Positions 36,534 through 50,895 of a DNA stretch of 64,000 bases are shown in pieces. This DNA comes from Bdellovibrionales bacterium (GTDB lineage Bacteria > Bdellovibrionota > Bdellovibrionia > Bdellovibrionales > UBA1609), in NCBI GenBank assembly GCA_965205945.1, contig CBDBIB010000003.1, positions 224,001 through 288,000 on the forward strand, given 5' to 3'. Position numbers and translations under genes: made by a program. Position 1 is the first letter of the stretch. Each line of letters opens with the position of its first letter. The notes under the pieces were generated by a model that saw only the letters and a program-made list of their open reading frames with translations, searched no databases and had not been told where the DNA came from.

Positions 36534-37523
36534 CCAGCATATGCACTTGACTACACTAACAGGGTATTTTAGACATATCAGTCTTAAAGTATCCTAAAAA
36601 CCTACGAGAATTTGATCAAATTTTTAAAGATGATGACGCTTGCTTGGCTTTTCTTAAGGAGCAGCGTTGGGGTAAAGACTTTAAATGCCAGGCCTGTGGC
36701 AACAACACATACTGGTTAATTTCAACTAGACTTTGCAAATGTAAAACTTGTCTTTTTGCAAATTCAGTCAAAGTTGGTTCTATTTTTGAGCCCTCAAAAC
36801 TTCCGATTAAAACATGGTTCTATGCAATCTGGTGGATCACTGCACAAAAAAACTGGAGTAAGCGCACTAAGCCTTCAAAGAATTCTGGGTCTAGGAAGTT
36901 ATGGAGCAGCCTGGCTACTTCTACATAAAATTCGAAACGCTATGGTCCATGGGGACTAGAGTCTTTTGCGTGGAGAGGTTGAAGTTGATGAAGCTTTTAT
37001 TGGTGGTTTTAGGTCTAAAAAGCGCGGTAGAGGAGCCGAAGGCAAAGAGCTTGTGGTGATTGCAGCTGAGTGCTCAGGAAAAAAGCGAGTTAGCAGAATC
37101 AGAATTCAAAGAGTTCCTGATGCTTCTACTGGAAACCTAGAAACATTTATTTTGGCAAATATAGAGCCTGGTTCGACCATCCATACTGATGGCTGGAAAA
37201 GTTATAATGATGTTGGAAGTTTAGGATACAAGCATTTGCCAAGAAAACCAGCGAGTGTAGATCCTGATGAATTGTTTCCGAGAATAAATACTGTAACAGC
37301 ACTTTTAAAAAGATGGTTGATGGGTACGCTCCATGGAAGATTGGACTCAAAACATATTAGATAGTTATTTTGAGGAGTTTATTTTTAGGCTTAACAGGAG
37401 AACATCTAAGGCGAGAGGTCTTTTATTCCAAAGAGTTATAGAAAACTCAATGCGTGTAGCTCCCACTCCCTACAAGGAAATAACGGCTAGAAAACGCTAA
37501 GTGTAGCTATGTGCATATGCTGG
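36534..37523 (+). mobile_element. IS1595-family insertion sequence, 990 bp, full length
   Basis: Terminal IRs CCAGCATATGCACTTGACTACACT (36534-36557) and AGTGTAGCTATGTGCATATGCTGG (37500-37523); 8-bp direct repeat TTATTTTA at 36526-36533 and 37524-37531. Confidence 0.95.
36576..37500 (+). pseudogene. IS1595 (ISXO2-like DDE) transposase pseudogene
   Basis: YPKNLREF, Zn ribbon CQAC..CKTC, EVDEAFIGG, IHTDGWKSY, YFEEFIFRLNRR; broken by a frameshift in an A-run near 36850 and TAG stops at 36957 and 37362. Confidence 0.92.
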
Positions 37524-37694: not shown

Positions 37695-38567
37695 ATGGGA
37701 CAGATTGTAGCAGGTTTACTAGCTCCACATCCACCACACTTAGTGTATGCAGAGAATCCAGAGCAGAATATTCCGCGGGCTGAATGTGGTTGGGAAAATC
37801 TACGTTGGGCTTATGAACGTTTAAGGAAAAGCTTAGCAGAACTAGAGTATGATACCATTGTTGTTCACTCTCCTCATTGGAGAACACAAATAGGAACTCA
37901 TTTTTTAGGAGTAAAACATTTTAAAAACCTTTCTGTAGATCCAATTTTTCCACATCTTTTTAGATATCATTATAATTTAAAAGTTGATGTGGAGTTGGCC
38001 AACAAACTTTGTAGTCAAGCTTTTAAAGCAGGGTTGATGACAAAGATGATGAAAAACCCAGATTTTAGGGTGGACTATGGTACAATTACTAGTTGTCATA
38101 TGGTGAATCCATTATGGGATAAGCCTATTGTTGGAATTTCTTCTAACGGAGCATCTAAGTACTATAGTATGGATGTCATGCAGGAGCAAATGGCTGTTTT
38201 AGGAAAAGCCACAGCTAAAGCTATTAAAGAATCTGATAAAAAAGTTATTCTTATTGCAAGCCACTCATTATCCCATCGTCATTATGTTAAAGAGGCAGAT
38301 CCACCAGAGGATATGTCAAAAGAACATGTGGATCATCATGGTCAGTATCTTTGGGATATGAAAATGATTGATCTTATGAAAAAAGGAGACGTTAAAGAAA
38401 TTTTTAATACTATTCCAGATTTTACTGAACAGACTAATGCTGAAACTGAAGCTGGTGGGCTTTCGTGGATGCTTCAAGCTATGGGTATGAAAAATATAAA
38501 AGCTCAAGTTCACGGTTATGGAACGGTTATTGGTACAGGCAATGCTGTTGTTGAATGGAGGTCTTAA
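37695..38567 (+). CDS. amnB: 2-aminophenol 1,6-dioxygenase beta (catalytic) subunit homolog, LigB family
   Basis: APHPPHLVYAENP.QN, WENLRWAYER, VHSPHW, SVDPIFP, FRVDYGTIT, LSH.H, PEDMSKE, GYGTVIGTGNAV match AmnB/CnbCb as recalled. Confidence 0.88.
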   Translation: MGQIVAGLLAPHPPHLVYAENPEQNIPRAECGWENLRWAYERLRKSLAELEYDTIVVHSPHWRTQIGTHFLGVKHFKNLSVDPIFPHLFRYHYNLKVDVELANKLCSQAFKAGLMTKMMKNPDFRVDYGTITSCHMVNPLWDKPIVGISSNGASKYYSMDVMQEQMAVLGKATAKAIKESDKKVILIASHSLSHRHYVKEADPPEDMSKEHVDHHGQYLWDMKMIDLMKKGDVKEIFNTIPDFTEQTNAETEAGGLSWMLQAMGMKNIKAQVHGYGTVIGTGNAVVEWRS

Positions 38568-39509
38568 ATGATTGATGAAAATTTTAAAGAAATACCTGAG
38601 CGCCCAGAAGTTTTAAAATCTTATGTGGTGCCAGGACTTCCTCACTTGCTACTTTGTCCTGAGAAAAAACCTGAGTGGCAAAGATTAAACGATGCTTTTA
38701 AAAAAGTAAAGGATGAGATTAAAGAGTTAAGCCCAGATGTGATTTTAATTTATTCAAGCTATTGGTTTAGTATATTAGGGCACCAGTTTCAAGCTAACCC
38801 AAACCCTAATTGGATTTTAGTTGATGAAGAGTGGCATGAACTAGGCTCTATTCCTTATGAAATGACCATTGATACAAGTTTTGCTTTAGAGAACAAGGCT
38901 TTTGCAGAAAAACGTGGTCTCCACACAAGAGCTATAAACTATGAGGGTTTTCCAATAGATACAGGGTCAGTGGTAGCATCAAAATTATTAAATCCAGATA
39001 ACAAATTTAAAACGGTAATTGTTTCATCAAATATATATTCTGATCGAGCTGAAACCGTAGTTTTAGCAAAATCATCTTTAGATACGCTAAAAAAACAAGG
39101 TAAAAAAGCTGTGGTGATTTTAGTCTCATCACTATCAAATCGTTATTTAGAAGAACCTTTGGATTTTAATAAGCCTGAAAGAATTCATTCACAAAAAGAT
39201 CAGGAGTGGAATTTAGAATTTTTAAAATTTTTGTCACAAGGTCGACTTGAGGACGCTTCACAGTTATCAAGGCAATTTCATAAAGAAGCTAGAGTAACTA
39301 AAAAAGTAGTGGCTTTTAAGCCTTATTGGTGGCTTTCAACAATGATGGGCGAGACTAATACTTTAAAAGGTGAGGTTATGGCATACGAGCCTATTCATGG
39401 AACGGGCGCTGCAATTGTATCTTTTACTCCAGCAGGTATAAGTGAAGGTGGTTTAGAGTTTGATGAAGAGGATGCTGAATTTTATAAAGGAAACCGTAAT
39501 GTCCTCTGA
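38568..39509 (+). CDS. amnA: 2-aminophenol 1,6-dioxygenase alpha (non-catalytic) subunit homolog
   Basis: LigB fold; VPGLPHL, PDVILIYS, VDEEW, GFPIDTG, GTGAA; starts immediately after the amnB stop. Confidence 0.8.
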   Translation: MIDENFKEIPERPEVLKSYVVPGLPHLLLCPEKKPEWQRLNDAFKKVKDEIKELSPDVILIYSSYWFSILGHQFQANPNPNWILVDEEWHELGSIPYEMTIDTSFALENKAFAEKRGLHTRAINYEGFPIDTGSVVASKLLNPDNKFKTVIVSSNIYSDRAETVVLAKSSLDTLKKQGKKAVVILVSSLSNRYLEEPLDFNKPERIHSQKDQEWNLEFLKFLSQGRLEDASQLSRQFHKEARVTKKVVAFKPYWWLSTMMGETNTLKGEVMAYEPIHGTGAAIVSFTPAGISEGGLEFDEEDAEFYKGNRNVL

Positions 39510-40614
39510 TACTGAATATTATGATATAAAAAATTTAAAAACTTTTCCAAAGAGTCCACTTGGAGAAAAAATTAAAGGGCTTTCATCAGGGCATGATGTT
39601 GAGTGGGTGCCCTTAGTTGATTTTAGAAGAAATGGCGTTAGTGAGAACACAATTCACGGTGCTATATCTTGGTTTTCAGGGGATAAAACAATTCATTCTT
39701 TTGGGGGGAATGTTCTTTGTTATGGTAGATCTATGATGAAGCCTTTTTACATAAAAGCTTTTCAAAAAGAACTTGCTAATACAACAAGCTGGAAACAAAA
39801 AACTATATCTATTTCATCACACAATGGAACAGCAGAACATGTATCCTGTGCTCAATCACTACTTCCTAAAGGGGAGTGGGGTTTAATGCTCACACCCCTT
39901 GATTTACCTCTTGTTCAGTTTGGAAGGCAAGTTAGACGTCCAAGAAGATGGCTTAATAACTCCTCAGGTCATCATGCTGCTCTTTTAAAAGGTTTAAGGT
40001 TAAAGGGTATAAATAGGGCAGGCTATATGCTACCAAATCATGAACTTTTTAAAGAATATTTAAAGGTCATGGGAAAATATTTAAATCAAGATGGCGCTAT
40101 TTATAAACCTAGGAGAGTAGCTCGTGATGGAGATGGTTTACCAACATGTGCAATGACAGTGGATGAGTTAGCAAAATGTTATGCGGCTTTGACCGTCGAT
40201 AAAGATAAGGATTGGATTTGGGAGGCTTTTTGTAAAGAACCTGATTTACTTGGAGGTTTTAATCGTTTAGACACAACGGTGATTAAATCTTGTAAAGGTA
40301 AAGTGATTGCTAAAGAAGGTGCTGATGGTCTTTTAGGTTTAGGTATCATTCATCCAGACTATCCAGGTGGATTAGGTGTGGTTATTAAGATTGCTCATGG
40401 CTGGAATCCTCAAGCAACTTGGTATGTGGCAAGAGCTATATTAGGTGTTTTAGGTTTTCAGCTTAGAAACCCTTATCCATTAAAAAGACAAAAAGCTTTT
40501 ATAGTAGAGGGGCTTGTTCCTCCACAGTATTTAAAAACTTTGGAAAAGATTTCTACCTGGGATGAATGGGATCCAGATCATGATCGTTGGTATTTTGAAG
40601 AAGATTTTTTATAG
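39499..40614 (+). CDS. Class 3 (Rhizobium etli-type, Asparaginase_II) hydrolase homolog with altered metal site
   Basis: RRNGVSE..IHG, RSMMKP, SSHNG, NNSSGHH, DGDG.P, IAKEGADG, VIKIAHG; ATG at 39499 with AAAGGA RBS. Confidence 0.8.
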   Translation: MSSDTEYYDIKNLKTFPKSPLGEKIKGLSSGHDVEWVPLVDFRRNGVSENTIHGAISWFSGDKTIHSFGGNVLCYGRSMMKPFYIKAFQKELANTTSWKQKTISISSHNGTAEHVSCAQSLLPKGEWGLMLTPLDLPLVQFGRQVRRPRRWLNNSSGHHAALLKGLRLKGINRAGYMLPNHELFKEYLKVMGKYLNQDGAIYKPRRVARDGDGLPTCAMTVDELAKCYAALTVDKDKDWIWEAFCKEPDLLGGFNRLDTTVIKSCKGKVIAKEGADGLLGLGIIHPDYPGGLGVVIKIAHGWNPQATWYVARAILGVLGFQLRNPYPLKRQKAFIVEGLVPPQYLKTLEKISTWDEWDPDHDRWYFEEDFL

Positions 40615-40630
40615 GAAGGAAGAAAAAAAT

Positions 40631-41047
40631 ATGTCGATTAATAGCGAAAAAGCACCAGAGCCTGTAGGTGCATATCCTCATGCAAAAAGAATAGGAGACC
40701 TGCTTTTCTTATCCGGTGTTGGCCCTAGAGTAAAGAATTCTAAAAAAATTCCAGGAGTAGAGATTTCATTAGATGGTGAAATTTTAAGTTATGATATTAA
40801 AATACAAACTCATGCAGTTATTAATAATATTAAATTAATTTTAGAATCTTCGGGTTTGGAATTAAAAGACTTAGTGGACTGTCAGTGTTTTTTAACAAAT
40901 ATGAAAAAAGATTTTAAAAAGTTTAATCAAGTTTATGCAGAGTATTTTTCAATAAAAAATGGTCCGTGTAGAACTACAGTAGAAATTGGCGCTTTACCAA
41001 CTCCAATTGCTGTTGAATTTAAGTGCATTGCTAAATTAAGAACGTAG
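40631..41047 (+). CDS. RidA family protein, 2-aminomuconate deaminase-like
   Basis: APEPVGAYPHA, LFLSGVGPR, PCRTTVE (catalytic Arg), LPTPIAVEFKCIA; ATG at 40631. Confidence 0.85.
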   Translation: MSINSEKAPEPVGAYPHAKRIGDLLFLSGVGPRVKNSKKIPGVEISLDGEILSYDIKIQTHAVINNIKLILESSGLELKDLVDCQCFLTNMKKDFKKFNQVYAEYFSIKNGPCRTTVEIGALPTPIAVEFKCIAKLRT

Positions 41048-46241: not shown

Positions 46242-48323
46242 ATGGATGATAAAAAATTAGATCTTAGATCAATAATCTCAAAGGTAGGTGGTAGTGATAA
46301 AGATCAAGATCTTATTTGGGTTGGAACTATGGCTGACTACTTAAATAAAGTTAAGAGTGATTTAAAAATTACAAGGAACGCTTATCAACGACTCTTTGAT
46401 CTTATTATAGAGCATGGAGTTAAGAATTATATTGATGCTAAAAAACAAGTTGTACATTATAATTTTTTTGATGATGAGGTTAATGGCGGTCAAGATGCGG
46501 TATTTGGTTTAGATATTCCATTAATGAAATTAATGAATGTTTTAAAAGCTGCTGCTCTTGGTTATGGGACAGAAAAAAGAGTTATTTTACTACACGGTCC
46601 TGTTGGAAGCGCAAAATCTACAATATGTAGGCGTATAAAAAAGGGTGTGGAGGCTTATTCTAAAACTCCTCAAGGACAATTATATACATTTGAATGGATT
46701 GACTTAAATGGTGAAAATGAGGAAATTTTCGGTAAGGACGTTAGGGTTTTCTTAAGTCCTATGAATGAAGAACCACTGTTATTATTTCCTAAAGTCTATA
46801 GAGAGGAAATTCAAACCCAACTTAATAAGGGGGCTCAAGGAGAATTTAGAGTAAATGTAAAAGGCGATGTTTGCCCTGCCTCAAGATTTATTTTTAAAAA
46901 GCTTAGTGAAAAATATGATGGGAATATTGAAAAAATACTAGAACACGTAAGAATTAAAAGAATGATTTTAAGTGAAGCAGATAGAATTGGAATTGGAACA
47001 TTTCAGCCTAAAGATGAAAAAAATCAAGACAGCACAGAGCTTACTGGAGACATCAATTATAAAAAGATTGCCCATTATGGTTCAGACTCTGATCCAAGGG
47101 CTTTTAATTTTGATGGTGAATTTAATATTGCAAACCGTGGAATTATTGAATTTGTAGAAGTTTTAAAGTTAGACGTAGCATTTTTATATGATCTTTTAGG
47201 TGCATCTGAAGAACATGTAATCAAACCAAAAAAGTTTGCACAAACACATATTGATGAAGTAATTATTGGTCATACAAATGAGCCAGAGTATAAAAGACTC
47301 CAGGATGATGAGTTTATGGAGGCGTTACGGGATAGAACGGTAAAAATTGACATTCCGTATATTACTAAACTTAAGAATGAAGTTTTAATTTATAAAAAAG
47401 ACTTTAACAGTCAGGTTTTAAGAGAAGTAAGTATTGCACCACATACTATTGAAGTTGCCTCTATGTGGGCTGTAATGACAAGGCTTGAAAAACCTAAGAA
47501 AGCTAATTTAAATAGGCTTCAAAAAATGAAACTTTATAATGGGAAAAATTTGCCTAATTATACAGAAGATAATATTAAAGAGCTTCGAAAAGAAACTGTT
47601 AGAGAAGGGTTGCAAGGAATTAGCCCAAGGTATGTTCAAGAAAAAATTTCAAATGCTATTATTTTTGCTCAACAGTCAAATAAAGGTTCAGTAAACCCAT
47701 TTATGGTTATAAATGAGCTTGAATCGGGTCTTAAAAATCATTCTCTGATTTCTAATGAAGAGGTTAAAGCTGATTATAAAGAGCTATTAAGTATTGTAAA
47801 GCAAGAATATGAGGAGATTATTAAAGCAGAAGTGCAAAGAGCAATAAGTGCTGATGAAAGGGCTTTAGCAAGCCTTTGTGGCAACTATATTGATAATATA
47901 AAAGCCTATACTCAAAAACAAAGAATACAGAATCCATTTACAGGTGAGTCTAAGGATGCAGATGAGCGTTTGATGAGATCTATTGAAGAAAAAATTGATA
48001 TTCCAGAGTCTAGAAAACAAGATTTTAGAAGAGAAATTATGAACTATATTAGTGCTATTTCTTTAAAGGGGCGAGAGTTTGATTATAAGGTTAATGATCG
48101 TTTACATAAGGCTTTAGAGCTTAAGCTTTTTGAGGATCAAAAAGACAGTATAAAACTAACCTCTTTGGTGATGTCTGCTACTGATTCTGATACAGAAGAA
48201 AAAATCAATGTTCTTAAAACAAGATTGATTAAAGATTTTGGCTATGATGAAGTGTCGGCAAAAGATGTTTTACATCATGTGGCAAGTATATTTGCAAGAG
48301 GTGATGTAAAGGATAGGCCTTAG
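46242..48323 (+). CDS. yeaG: PrkA/YeaG AAA+ serine protein kinase family
   Basis: [42 protein letters not shown]. Confidence 0.95.
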
Positions 48324-49420
48324 TGGGAATACAAGAAGATCATAAAAGATTTAATGAAATCATAAGAGGTCATATTAAGAAAGAGTTTAAAAAGTACATC
48401 GTCCATGAAGAGATGATGGGAAAATCTGAAAATAATTTTATTAAAATTCCTATTTCAAAAATAAAAATTCCTAAATTCATATATGGCTCTAAAGAAACAG
48501 GAGGAGTGAGCCAGGGAGTGAGCCAAGGAGAGGGACAAGGGGATGAAGAGGTTTTATGCCAGGGTCAGGAAGCCGGAAATGCGCCTGGAGAGCATAAAAT
48601 TGAAGTTGAATTAGAGATTCAAGAGCTTGCAGATCTTTTAGGTGAGCAGCTTGAGTTGCCAAGAATTAAACCTAAGGGTGTTAGGAAAATTGAATCATTT
48701 CAAAAAAAATACACAAATATTTCCGATCAAGGGCCTAAAGGTCTTCATCATTTTAAAAAAACATATAAAGAAGCGTTAAAAAGATCTATTTTAACAGGAA
48801 CATATGATTCTAAAGACCCTATAATTATACCAATTAAGGCTGATTTTAAATATAAATCACCTAAAAAAGTTTTAAAGCCAGCAACTAACGCTGTAGTTAT
48901 TTATATGATGGATGTTTCTGGTTCTATGGGGGCAGAGCAGAAAAAAATAGTAAGAATGCAAAGTTTTTGGATAAATGTGTGGCTTAAGCATAATTATAAA
49001 GGACTTAAAACCAGATTTATTATTCATGATGCTGCAGCAAAAGAAGTTAATGAAGAGACTTTTTTTAAAACAAGTGAGTCCGGTGGAACTTTGATTTCAT
49101 CAGCATATAAAAAAGCTGTTCAAATTATTAATAAAGATTATGTTGGGGAAAACTGGAATATCTATTTGTTTCATTTTAGTGATGGAGACAATTGGAGTAA
49201 TGATGATACGATTCTTTGTAAAGAAATTATTAAGAAAGATTTTACAAGAAAAGTGAATCTTTTTGGCTATGGACAAGTTGAAAGTAAGTATGGAAGTGGT
49301 CAGTTTATTAAAGATATAGAGCAAGATTTTAAAGATAATGAGATCGTGGTGTGTAGCCCAATTAAAGATAAGACTGAAATTATGAAATCGATTAAAGATT
49401 TTTTAGGAAAAGGGCAATAG
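48323..49420 (+). CDS. yeaH: YeaH/YhbH (DUF444) vWA-like protein
   Basis: MMDVSGSM, ESGGTLISSAY, WNIYLFHFSDGDNW. Confidence 0.93.
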   Translation: MGIQEDHKRFNEIIRGHIKKEFKKYIVHEEMMGKSENNFIKIPISKIKIPKFIYGSKETGGVSQGVSQGEGQGDEEVLCQGQEAGNAPGEHKIEVELEIQELADLLGEQLELPRIKPKGVRKIESFQKKYTNISDQGPKGLHHFKKTYKEALKRSILTGTYDSKDPIIIPIKADFKYKSPKKVLKPATNAVVIYMMDVSGSMGAEQKKIVRMQSFWINVWLKHNYKGLKTRFIIHDAAAKEVNEETFFKTSESGGTLISSAYKKAVQIINKDYVGENWNIYLFHFSDGDNWSNDDTILCKEIIKKDFTRKVNLFGYGQVESKYGSGQFIKDIEQDFKDNEIVVCSPIKDKTEIMKSIKDFLGKGQ

Positions 49421-50895
49421 TGAACAGTTTGTCTAAACCGCTTCAAAAGGAGCAAGCACGTATTAAAAAGTTAGCTAAAAGTTTAGGGCTTGATTTTTTT
49501 GAAACAGTTTTTGAAATGATTGATTATAAGGAGATGAATCAAATTGCTGCATATGGAGGGTTTCCTGTTCGCTACCCTCATTGGAAATTTGGAATGGAAT
49601 ATGACTCGCTCTCAAAAAATTATGAGTATGGACTTTCTAAAATATATGAACTAGTTATTAATAACAATCCTTGTTATGCCTATCTTTTAGAAGGAAACTC
49701 TTTTTTAGATCAAAAATTAGTGATGGCTCATGTTTATGGGCATTGTGATTTTTTCAAGAATAACAAATGGTTTTTAAAAACAAATAGAAAAATGATGGAT
49801 CAAATGGCTAATCATGCTACAAGAATTCGTCGCTATATTGATAAGTATGGCCTTAATGAAGTTGAAAAATTCATAGATATTTGTTTATCGTTGGATAATT
49901 TAATTGATTGTCATGGTCCATACAATGAGAAAAAAACAGATTTGATTAGAAATGAAAATGAATTGATTCAAAATGTAGATTTTGAAAAAAAAGAATATTT
50001 AAAAAATTATGCAAAAAGTGTAAAGAAAGAGAATGAAGGTTTACTAACGTCGCAGCTAAGTTTTTTAAACAACAAACCTTATCAGGCTGAAAAAGATATT
50101 TTAAAATTTTTGATTTCTAATGCACCATTAAAAGCTTGGGAACAAGATGTTTTAAGTATTCTAAGAGACGAGAGTTATTATTTTGCACCACAGGCAATGA
50201 CTAAAATTATGAATGAAGGATGGGCTTCATATTGGCACGTAAAAATGATGACAGATTATATTTGTACAGACAGTGAGATTGTTTGCTTTTGTGATACACA
50301 CAGTGGAACTATGGCAGTAAATCCTAAGGGACTAAACCCTTATAAAATAGGAATTGAATTATTTAAGGATATAGAGAAGAGATGGGATAAAGGTCAATTT
50401 GGATCAGATTGGTTAGAGTGTGATGATCTTTTGGAGAAAGTAAATTGGGATAAGAACTTAGGCTTGGGTAAAGAAAAAATTTTTGAAGTTCGAAGAGATT
50501 TTAATGATGTGATGTTTATTGATCATTTTTTAACAAAAGAGTTTTGTGTAAAGAATAAGTTTTTTGTTTATAAATATAATGAACAAACAAAAACCTTTAA
50601 GGTAGACACTAAAGATTTTAAAGCTATTAAAGCTAAGTTCTTATTTCAACTTACAAATTTAGGGCAACCTATTATACAAGCTGTGGAGTCTAATTTTGAA
50701 AACAAAGGGGGATTGCTTTTAACTCATATGTTTGAAGAGGTTGAGCTTGAACCAAATTATATGAATGAAACGCTACAAAGAGTACAGGCTCTTTGGAGAA
50801 AACCAATTTATTTAGCAACAGTTTTAGATAAATCGCCCTCACTGGTTTCCTATGATGGAGTAGAATTTAATGTTAAAAAGTTAGAGAGCATGTAA
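49420..50895 (+). CDS. ycgB: SpoVR/YcgB family protein
   Basis: RYPHWKFG, IYELVIN, AHVYGHCDFFKNN, TKIMNEGWASYWH, NPYKIG. Confidence 0.95.
   Translation: MNSLSKPLQKEQARIKKLAKSLGLDFFETVFEMIDYKEMNQIAAYGGFPVRYPHWKFGMEYDSLSKNYEYGLSKIYELVINNNPCYAYLLEGNSFLDQKLVMAHVYGHCDFFKNNKWFLKTNRKMMDQMANHATRIRRYIDKYGLNEVEKFIDICLSLDNLIDCHGPYNEKKTDLIRNENELIQNVDFEKKEYLKNYAKSVKKENEGLLTSQLSFLNNKPYQAEKDILKFLISNAPLKAWEQDVLSILRDESYYFAPQAMTKIMNEGWASYWHVKMMTDYICTDSEIVCFCDTHSGTMAVNPKGLNPYKIGIELFKDIEKRWDKGQFGSDWLECDDLLEKVNWDKNLGLGKEKIFEVRRDFNDVMFIDHFLTKEFCVKNKFFVYKYNEQTKTFKVDTKDFKAIKAKFLFQLTNLGQPIIQAVESNFENKGGLLLTHMFEEVELEPNYMNETLQRVQALWRKPIYLATVLDKSPSLVSYDGVEFNVKKLESM

Follow-up and report, generated by a model that had tools for sequence, protein, structure and literature searches.

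We have examined four adjacent genes in a 64,000-nucleotide stretch of DNA (the window) from a Bdellovibrionales bacterium (GenBank assembly GCA_965205945.1, contig CBDBIB010000003.1, positions 224,001 to 288,000). They encode the two subunits of a predicted 2-aminophenol dioxygenase (amnB and amnA), a hydrolase of the Asparaginase_II family that we call Hyd, and a protein of the RidA family (Table 1). All four are intact, and their coordinates and junctions on the forward strand agree with those given in the first-pass annotation. The genes are tightly packed: the amnB TAA (38565-38567) directly adjoins the amnA ATG (38568), the amnA stop (TGA, 39507-39509) and the Hyd start (ATG, 39499) overlap by 11 bp, and 16 nt (40615-40630) separate Hyd from the ATG of the RidA gene, ahead of which a Shine-Dalgarno-like AGGAAGGAAG run spans the Hyd stop. 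A mechanical list of open reading frames (ORFs) holds longer frames for Hyd (from TTG 39460) and for the RidA gene (from ATG 40562); the starts at ATG 39499 and ATG 40631 are preferred because homologue alignments begin at their residues 1-16. A terminator scan found no forward-strand terminator-like site within 37695-41047, and a promoter scan of the operon region returned fewer promoter-like sites than shuffled sequences did, none of them usefully placed.

Table 1. Genes of the array and the insertion sequence remnant upstream of it (positions in the window)
Feature	Position	Strand	Description
amnB	37695..38567	+	290 aa; beta subunit, 2-aminophenol 1,6-dioxygenase type (LigB, class III extradiol), predicted from its family to be catalytic
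amnA	38568..39509	+	313 aa; alpha subunit of the same dioxygenase, predicted to be non-catalytic
Hyd (Asparaginase_II-family gene)	39499..40614	+	371 aa; class-3-asparaginase-like serine hydrolase
RidA gene	40631..41047	+	138 aa; RidA/YjgF family, putative 2-aminomuconate deaminase (AmnD/AmnE-like)
Broken IS1595-family transposase	36644..37364, possibly on to ~37500	+	two ORFs in different frames; 330 bp upstream of amnB

Proteins of the array

The dioxygenase subunits and the RidA protein can be assigned with some precision. AmnB matches Pfam LigB with 94 bits, and a sequence search of the PDB aligns its residues 2-289 with the beta subunit of 2-aminophenol 1,6-dioxygenase (8ihg_A, E 4e-112) and also finds the 2-amino-5-chlorophenol enzyme (3vsg_B, E 6.5e-106); it is approximately 65% identical to characterised enzymes that act on plain 2-aminophenol. 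His12, His61 and Glu250, which we take to be the iron ligands, and His194, presumably the catalytic residue, are unchanged in all 16 aligned orthologues; the His/His/Glu set that appeared intact in the first-pass annotation is thereby among the invariant residues. At the corresponding columns AmnA (LigB, 41 bits; E 1.6e-44 to the alpha subunit 7txy_A in the PDB search) has Gly, Tyr and Val at the iron-ligand positions and Asn in the place of the catalytic His. The RidA protein scores 85 bits against Ribonuc_L-PSP and 91 bits against TIGR00004, which is under the 106-bit cut-off of that model; its best PDB match is a 2-aminomuconate deaminase (6izh, E 5e-23). In one Poseidoniaceae locus (L042, 13650-15077), AmnA and RidA lie in a single open frame of 476 aa with both LigB and Ribonuc_L-PSP domains, which may be a fusion of the two that arose naturally in Marine Group II archaea.

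The hydrolase is more distant from anything characterised. Hyd scores 123 bits against Pfam Asparaginase_II and E 2e-12 against ReAIV (8cly), and the only strong fold matches of its AlphaFold2 (AF2) model (pLDDT 76) in Foldseek are ReAV and ReAIV (TM-score 0.65-0.69), the class 3 L-asparaginases of Rhizobium etli (PF06089), with which it shares the fold at 20-25% identity. It keeps their catalytic set, namely the Arg-Ser-x-x-Lys motif, the Ser of SHNG and the Lys of K-x-G-A-[DE]-G: Arg77, Ser78, Lys81, Ser107 and Lys272 of Hyd, the counterparts of ReAV Arg47, Ser48, Lys51, Ser80 and Lys263, do not vary in any of the 20 sequences compared. In ReAV, Ser48, Lys51, Ser80 and Lys263 form a beta-acyl-enzyme while Arg47 holds the alpha-carboxylate of the substrate (PMC12292245). 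The Zn ligands of ReAV (Cys135/Lys138/Cys189) are, however, replaced by Ser/His/Asp in the window Hyd, and in ReAV the substitutions C135A and C189A each abolish asparaginase activity (PMC11024299). This replacement is not family-wide: Cys/Glu/Cys stands in the Poseidoniales orthologues and in one of six further bacterial orthologues (L100), and the other five (L096-L099 and L101) have the full Cys/Lys/Cys.

Two further features set Hyd apart from ReAV and ReAIV. It has an additional invariant Arg-rich loop (Q-F-G-R-Q-V-R-R-P-R-R-W, residues 140-151, window 39916-39951), which is predicted to be flexible or disordered (pLDDT <50 in the AF2 model), and an acidic C-terminal tail; furthermore, it is always embedded in a kynurenine/aminophenol gene set. 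This genomic context argues for a natural substrate that would be of the beta-aspartyl type but other than asparagine.

A seven-gene module in bacteria and archaea

The protein collection holds 1652 homologues of Hyd, the best 119 of which, besides the query, are 70-85% identical. To place them in their surroundings, one genome per species was scanned, which gave 528 confirmed places among 546 pattern matches, and the best 80 of these 528 loci, fetched by way of Hyd, were searched by tblastn with the window proteins. The 47 bacterial loci belong to metagenome-assembled genomes (MAGs) of Bdellovibrionales and Pseudobdellovibrionaceae, to Sulfidibacter corallicola and to two MAGs labelled Pseudomonadota; the 33 archaeal loci are from Marine Group II (Poseidoniales), where Hyd is 63-69% identical to the window Hyd. 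Among the named carriers, Sulfidibacter corallicola and Acanthopleuribacter pedis are in culture. The first-pass annotation had described a self-contained pathway of four genes. Instead, the array is one half of a module of seven, which encodes a short-chain dehydrogenase/reductase (SDR), a luciferase-like monooxygenase (LLM), an AmnC-like aldehyde dehydrogenase (ALDH), AmnB, AmnA, Hyd and RidA. As this module spans Bdellovibrio-like bacteria, Acidobacteriota and Marine Group II archaea, the earlier suggestion of a natural rather than a xenobiotic pathway fits well.

The order SDR-LLM-ALDH-AmnB-AmnA-Hyd-RidA is contiguous in 20 of the 47 bacterial loci, and AmnB-AmnA-Hyd-RidA stand in order within 4.2 kb in 37 of them. 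The association of these four genes is thus far beyond chance and, with regard to the neighbourhood comparison that had been proposed, is not unique to this genome. Six further genomes have a second order, SDR-LLM-Hyd-ALDH-...-AmnB-AmnA-RidA. LLM-Hyd-ALDH is found in 33 of 33 archaeal loci, with AmnB-AmnA-RidA approximately 3.7 kb away, along with an alpha/beta-hydrolase-SDR pair, where the contig extends far enough. Across the 80 loci, AmnA was found in 73 and RidA in 72; seven of the misses in each case are loci that end at a contig end, and the remaining one for RidA is Sulfidibacter, which has no RidA nearby. LLM was found in 60, most of the misses again being loci that end at a contig end. 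Hyd itself, 63-88% identical over these loci, is the most conserved member and never stands apart from the set. Neither a flavin reductase nor a regulator was found in the flanks of the clusters examined. The divergent gene that recurs upstream of SDR encodes an RNase T-type exonuclease and was set aside as plain synteny. The gene set is widespread and apparently unpublished, and a full-text search, which mostly did not extend to subscription journals, found no account of a passage from kynurenine to 2-aminophenol by enzymes of this kind.

In the genome that holds the window (G000; 1.87 Mb, 97% complete), the other half of the module, SDR-LLM-ALDH, lies on a different contig (C1:559946-563397, with LLM at 561402-562625). 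There it adjoins genes for RNase T and S-adenosylhomocysteine hydrolase, which also border the module in relatives. In a relative of the same genus (L040, 85-88% identical), the two halves are still linked, 3 kb apart. Because the halves are linked in that relative and the C1 half keeps the usual flanks, the window array appears to be the half that was relocated, and the IS1595 remnant upstream of amnB, whose Zn_ribbon_IS1595 (36644-36928) and DDE_Tnp_IS1595 (36966-37364) domains fall on separate ORFs, probably marks the rearrangement that parted them. The first-pass annotation was correct that the operon holds no AmnC, but the pathway need not be without one, since an AmnC-type dehydrogenase is encoded beside SDR and LLM on C1: the seven best PDB matches of this ALDH (E 3e-126 to 9e-123) are without exception dehydrogenases of 2-aminomuconate 6-semialdehyde.

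Some neighbouring genes may be recorded here. On C1 (L081, 36-6654), a marine-subtype ammonium transporter follows ALDH directly, and further on there are an RsbW/STAS/SpoIIE-type partner-switching set and an ankyrin-fused glutaminase; the region is possibly a nitrogen-metabolism neighbourhood. In the window, the gene downstream of the array is bolA-like by Pfam and unrelated, and at 46242-50895 there is a three-gene PrkA-DUF444 (YeaH-like)-SpoVR operon, a conserved starvation-associated set.

Association with tryptophan breakdown

The module is physically joined to the genes that begin tryptophan catabolism, those for tryptophan 2,3-dioxygenase (TDO) and the kynurenine formamidase KynB. The clearest case is a run of nine genes on one strand, TDO-SDR-LLM-Hyd-ALDH-AmnB-AmnA-RidA-KynB (L098), and a second locus has the same array, likewise with KynB at its end (L100). 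In L078/L095, TDO directly follows RidA, with KynB-LLM 3 kb upstream, and in L037 KynB stands immediately behind RidA. TDO, SDR and LLM are adjacent in a second locus of Sulfidibacter (L089). Finally, a single operon reads LLM-Hyd'-KynB-TDO (L093, 7462-11266, genome G044), where Hyd' is a relative of Hyd; the Hyd' and TDO ORFs were confirmed by Pfam.

The content of whole genomes points in the same direction. Each query was run against one set of 201 genomes, drawn from 76 genera of the class to which the window belongs; of these genomes, 166 have TDO, 62 LLM, 60 Hyd, 57 AmnB and 37 kynureninase. Every genome with Hyd also has TDO and LLM (60/60 for each), and none has kynureninase (0/60). At the level of genera, 29 have Hyd and 20 have kynureninase, with zero overlap, and within one family (f6) all 18 genomes have TDO, of which 11 have Hyd and the other seven kynureninase. 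The cluster-bearing archaea are similar, with TDO in 30 of 31 and kynureninase in none of the 31.

The inventory of kynurenine genes in the window's own genome is consistent with this pattern. TDO is present (312 bits), with a KynB-type arylformamidase beside it (199 bits against a cut-off of 223). Searches of this genome found no kynureninase (TIGR01814), no FAD_binding_3 protein like kynurenine 3-monooxygenase (KMO), the one weak match being protoporphyrinogen oxidase, and no 3-hydroxyanthranilate dioxygenase (3-HAO; PF06052). As a control, the 3-HAO search was positive in six of six genomes with kynureninase and in none of eight with Hyd or LLM. In the TDO region of this genome (C3:162-167 kb; L083, 7375-11728), a three-gene operon consists of an arginase-family gene (HutG-like, 166 bits), a threonine-aldolase-like Beta_elim_lyase gene and, in last place, TDO; KynB and a methyltransferase gene are divergent from it. 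The arginase-family gene, Beta_elim_lyase, TDO and divergent KynB recur in L085.

Taken together, the link of this pathway to tryptophan is well supported, and the operon very probably belongs to a catabolic pathway connected with TDO and kynurenine. The tryptophan/kynurenine variant that the first-pass annotation had offered as an example is therefore supported on two sides, by the physical joining of TDO and KynB to the module and by its complementary distribution to kynureninase.

A candidate route from kynurenine to 2-aminophenol

What the array does within such a pathway is less certain. We think it probable that the array supplies the ring-cleavage half of a tryptophan catabolic pathway that does without kynureninase. 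The acyl part of kynurenine, a 2-aminophenyl ketone, has the skeleton of aspartate, and in luciferase-family enzymes a flavin peroxide attacks carbonyl carbons. TDO and the formamidase, for which the genes are present elsewhere in the genome, would make L-kynurenine. LLM would then oxidise the aryl ketone in the Baeyer-Villiger fashion, with migration of the aryl group, to the 2-aminophenyl ester of the beta-carboxyl of aspartate, which could rearrange to N-(2-hydroxyphenyl)asparagine. In the following step, Ser78 of Hyd would attack the beta-aspartyl carbonyl, as class 3 asparaginases attack asparagine, and release L-aspartate and 2-aminophenol; because the Arg that binds the alpha-carboxylate and the Ser nucleophile are both intact, Hyd would be expected to cleave either the ester or the anilide form. 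By family assignment (and approximately 65% identity), AmnBA would convert 2-aminophenol to 2-aminomuconate 6-semialdehyde, the AmnC-like dehydrogenase encoded on C1 would oxidise this to 2-aminomuconate, and RidA would deaminate the latter to 4-oxalocrotonate and ammonia. SDR might act further downstream, for example in the reduction of the oxo-enedioate, but this is a guess. For the specific chemistry of LLM followed by Hyd, we would put the case for and the case against on an equal footing.

The order of these steps is suggested by genomes that lack the ring-cleaving enzyme. TDO and LLM are common to four genomes (G020, G044, G051 and G061) that are 97-100% complete. Hyd accompanies them in the first three, and G061 has LLM without it; in none of the four was a LigB-family gene or an AmnC-like ALDH found. 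In G020, which is a closed chromosome, LLM-Hyd stands alone at the syntenic RNase T site (L090, 7696-9975). G044 is the source of the LLM-Hyd'-KynB-TDO operon, and G061 has KynB-LLM with a divergent TDO (L094, 6294-9166). LLM and Hyd are also directly adjacent in all of the archaeal loci and in at least 10 bacterial genomes. Thus, an upper module of TDO, KynB, LLM and Hyd can stand alone, the lower one being AmnBA, ALDH, RidA and SDR, and LLM and Hyd probably precede ring cleavage because genomes without a LigB dioxygenase keep them. The first-pass annotation had proposed that the hydrolase supplies the o-aminophenol substrate; the pairing of Hyd with LLM even where there is no dioxygenase would place it upstream, as that proposal needs.

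A competing scheme reverses this order. In it, LLM would hydroxylate kynurenine at C3 in place of KMO, AmnBA would cleave 3-hydroxykynurenine and ALDH would oxidise the product; Hyd would then strip the ring-opened beta-dicarbonyl of its beta-aspartyl side chain, in a retro-Claisen-type reaction through a beta-aspartyl-enzyme, to give L-aspartate and the 2-aminomuconate on which RidA acts. Such a scheme accounts for the same genome-content data and suits both the position of Hyd between AmnA and RidA in the window and the coupling of Hyd to ALDH in archaea. It also offers a reason for the Arg-rich loop, which a polycarboxylate substrate would need and which occurs only with AmnBA (in 10 of 10 orthologues checked from loci with AmnBA, and in 0 of 4 from genomes without it). 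However, in the near-complete genomes described above, three of them with Hyd, the hydrolase cannot act on a ring-opened substrate, because the LigB dioxygenase is absent, as is 3-HAO in those tested. Furthermore, the most constantly adjacent pair is LLM-Hyd, hydroxylation of an aromatic ring is not typical of the luciferase family, and AmnB closely resembles enzymes that use plain 2-aminophenol. We therefore regard a route through 3-hydroxykynurenine as unlikely. Only slightly less unlikely is that the enzymes perform some other chemistry on kynurenine or N-formylkynurenine, for example that Hyd cleaves another amide, or that LLM acts on N-formylkynurenine or on an intermediate reduced by SDR. 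The link to the pathway is strong while the individual steps are deduced, SDR is constant in the full module with no role assigned to it, and the cluster has no flavin reductase, all of which leave room for such variants. Against them, Hyd keeps the whole asparaginase-type apparatus, including the Arg for the alpha-carboxylate, which points to a substrate of the beta-aspartyl type, and where AmnBA is lacking from the genome the LLM-Hyd loci have no SDR, which is therefore not needed for the first steps.

Two other explanations were weighed. As the window's own genome has NadC (C3:790563-791054) and in our searches lacked NadA, kynureninase and 3-HAO, AmnBA might have replaced 3-hydroxyanthranilate dioxygenase in a module that feeds quinolinate to NadC for NAD synthesis. 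The distribution of NadA led us to reject this source of quinolinate, and we consider it very improbable: 56 of the 60 genomes with Hyd keep NadA (the exceptions are G000, G035, G017 and G098), and in family f6 all 11 genomes with Hyd have NadA while the seven with kynureninase do not, so that in this family the module is not a replacement for NadA, as it is the genomes with kynureninase that lose it. In addition, ALDH of the AmnC type and the deaminase of the 2-aminomuconate type, which are constant partners, belong to catabolism, as we take the module itself to do. Even harder to credit is an ordinary xenobiotic 2-aminophenol or nitroaromatic operon (amn/cnb/nbz) in which the asparaginase is a nitrogen-scavenging passenger. 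The best solved relatives of AmnB, AmnA, ALDH and RidA do stem from such operons, but a passenger would hardly be the most conserved member and constant companion of the set. The module, moreover, is carried by predatory bacteria and by marine archaea that are oligotrophic, our searches of the window's own genome did not find the lower meta-pathway, and TDO and KynB share operons with the module. Nor does the window Hyd retain the Zn ligands on which asparaginase activity depends in ReAV (PMC11024299).

Several observations weigh against the route through an aryl ester that we prefer. Every one of its steps has been read from the comparison of sequences and structures. LLM (approximately 410 aa) matches Pfam Bac_luciferase with 30 bits over its N-terminal part only, and no PDB sequence match was found at E up to 1; its AF2 model (pLDDT 88) has the luciferase-like TIM-barrel fold, with its best Foldseek matches to luciferases, RslO1, 3,6-diketocamphane monooxygenase, RutA and SsuD (target-normalised TM-score up to 0.78), but at approximately 15% identity to any solved enzyme this fold does not tell which reaction is catalysed. 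No flavin reductase partner for LLM lies in or beside any cluster examined. SDR gave generic SDR matches only in PDB and NCBIfam searches and has no assigned step. The Hyd' proteins of two dioxygenase-free genomes are 35-40% identical to the window Hyd and may differ from it in function. The Arg-rich loop is not explained by an aryl-ester substrate; it could suit a polyanionic ring-opened one or, alternatively, could be a docking element, and the predicted complex of AmnB, AmnA and Hyd scored 0.01 against a mark of 0.32, which speaks neither for binding nor against it. The complementary distribution of Hyd and kynureninase among genomes with TDO (nominal Fisher p = 7e-9) overstates their independence, as the sampled genomes are kin. 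Furthermore, 67 of the 166 genomes with TDO have neither the module nor kynureninase, and therefore TDO alone implies neither route. Finally, no classic meta-cleavage lower pathway that would use 4-oxalocrotonate was found: the window's own genome has one gene with an FAA_hydrolase domain and no 4-oxalocrotonate tautomerase, and no lower-pathway gene was found in any cluster examined, although aldolase and acetaldehyde dehydrogenase were not separately searched.

As an observation on the sample itself, the 67 genomes with TDO and neither route include all 33 of genus g30.

Relation to known pathways and implications

The lower half of the module is homologous to the amn/cnb/nbz 2-aminophenol pathway and, judged by its sequences, is expected to work like it. 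Meta-cleavage clusters for 2-aminophenol are described as amn in Pseudomonas sp. AP-3 and Burkholderia xenovorans LB400, cnb in Comamonas and ARO in Actinobacteria (PMC3790839, PMC6742747, PMC10470539). Like these, the module has a two-subunit LigB dioxygenase, an AmnC-type dehydrogenase and a deaminase of the RidA family. Unlike them, it comes without the 4-oxalocrotonate decarboxylase, hydratase and aldolase set in the searches made (aldolase was not separately searched), adds Hyd, LLM and SDR as constant members, has its genomic links with TDO and KynB, not with genes for nitroarenes or aniline, and has predators and marine archaea as its hosts. In the window's genome, the dehydrogenase is also on a separate contig, whereas in relatives it is adjacent.

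The bacterial kynurenine pathway in its canonical form consists of TDO, KynB and kynureninase, with KMO and 3-HAO for the branch to quinolinate and 2-amino-3-carboxymuconate semialdehyde (ACMS). The proposed route would share the start, TDO and a KynB-type formamidase, and resemble the ACMS branch in its end, from 2-aminomuconate semialdehyde to 2-aminomuconate and deamination. The differences are that module and kynureninase never occur together in the 201 genomes, that the side chain would depart as aspartate and not as alanine, and that the module does not replace NadA. With regard to the predicted oxidation, LLM shares the luciferase-like TIM barrel with type II Baeyer-Villiger monooxygenases such as 3,6-diketocamphane monooxygenase, but it differs from them in its low identity, in the absence of a reductase gene nearby and in that its substrate would be an amino acid. 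There is a chemical parallel in the 4-hydroxyacetophenone route, in which a Baeyer-Villiger monooxygenase is followed by an esterase and then a ring-cleavage dioxygenase; the succession of aryl ketone, aryl ester, phenol and ring cleavage proposed here would be the same. The monooxygenase of that route differs from LLM in fold and belongs to type I, which uses FAD and NADPH. What would be new here is a route within tryptophan catabolism that is assembled from known enzyme families and includes two predicted new activities.

This analysis leaves us with a proposal that we put forward tentatively in its full form: that LLM is a Baeyer-Villiger enzyme acting on kynurenine, that Hyd has been recruited as a beta-aspartyl-aminophenol hydrolase, and that the two together form a third exit besides those of kynureninase and KMO, which many Bdellovibrio-like predators and the Marine Group II archaea would use as their main route of tryptophan breakdown. 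To our knowledge, every aerobic exit from kynurenine that has been described proceeds through kynureninase, KMO or an aminotransferase. If the proposal is true, there would be a fourth, to aspartate and 2-aminophenol, with two new enzyme activities, and the many organisms that have TDO and no kynureninase would be explained. The class 3 asparaginase family would gain a second function, one that is not that of an asparaginase. In genomes that have only TDO, KynB, LLM and Hyd, the route would end at 2-aminophenol, which could precede pigments or antibiotics of the phenoxazinone type.

In summary, the origin of the aminophenol dioxygenases may also have to be seen differently. We know of these enzymes only from pollutant degraders; the route proposed here would give them a natural role and an origin, and the xenobiotic aminophenol dioxygenases may have been drawn from this module as their natural reservoir. 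Marine Group II archaea rank among the most abundant heterotrophs in surface ocean waters, and predatory bacteria live on the protein of their prey. For both, a gene set that is highly conserved in them would acquire a function.

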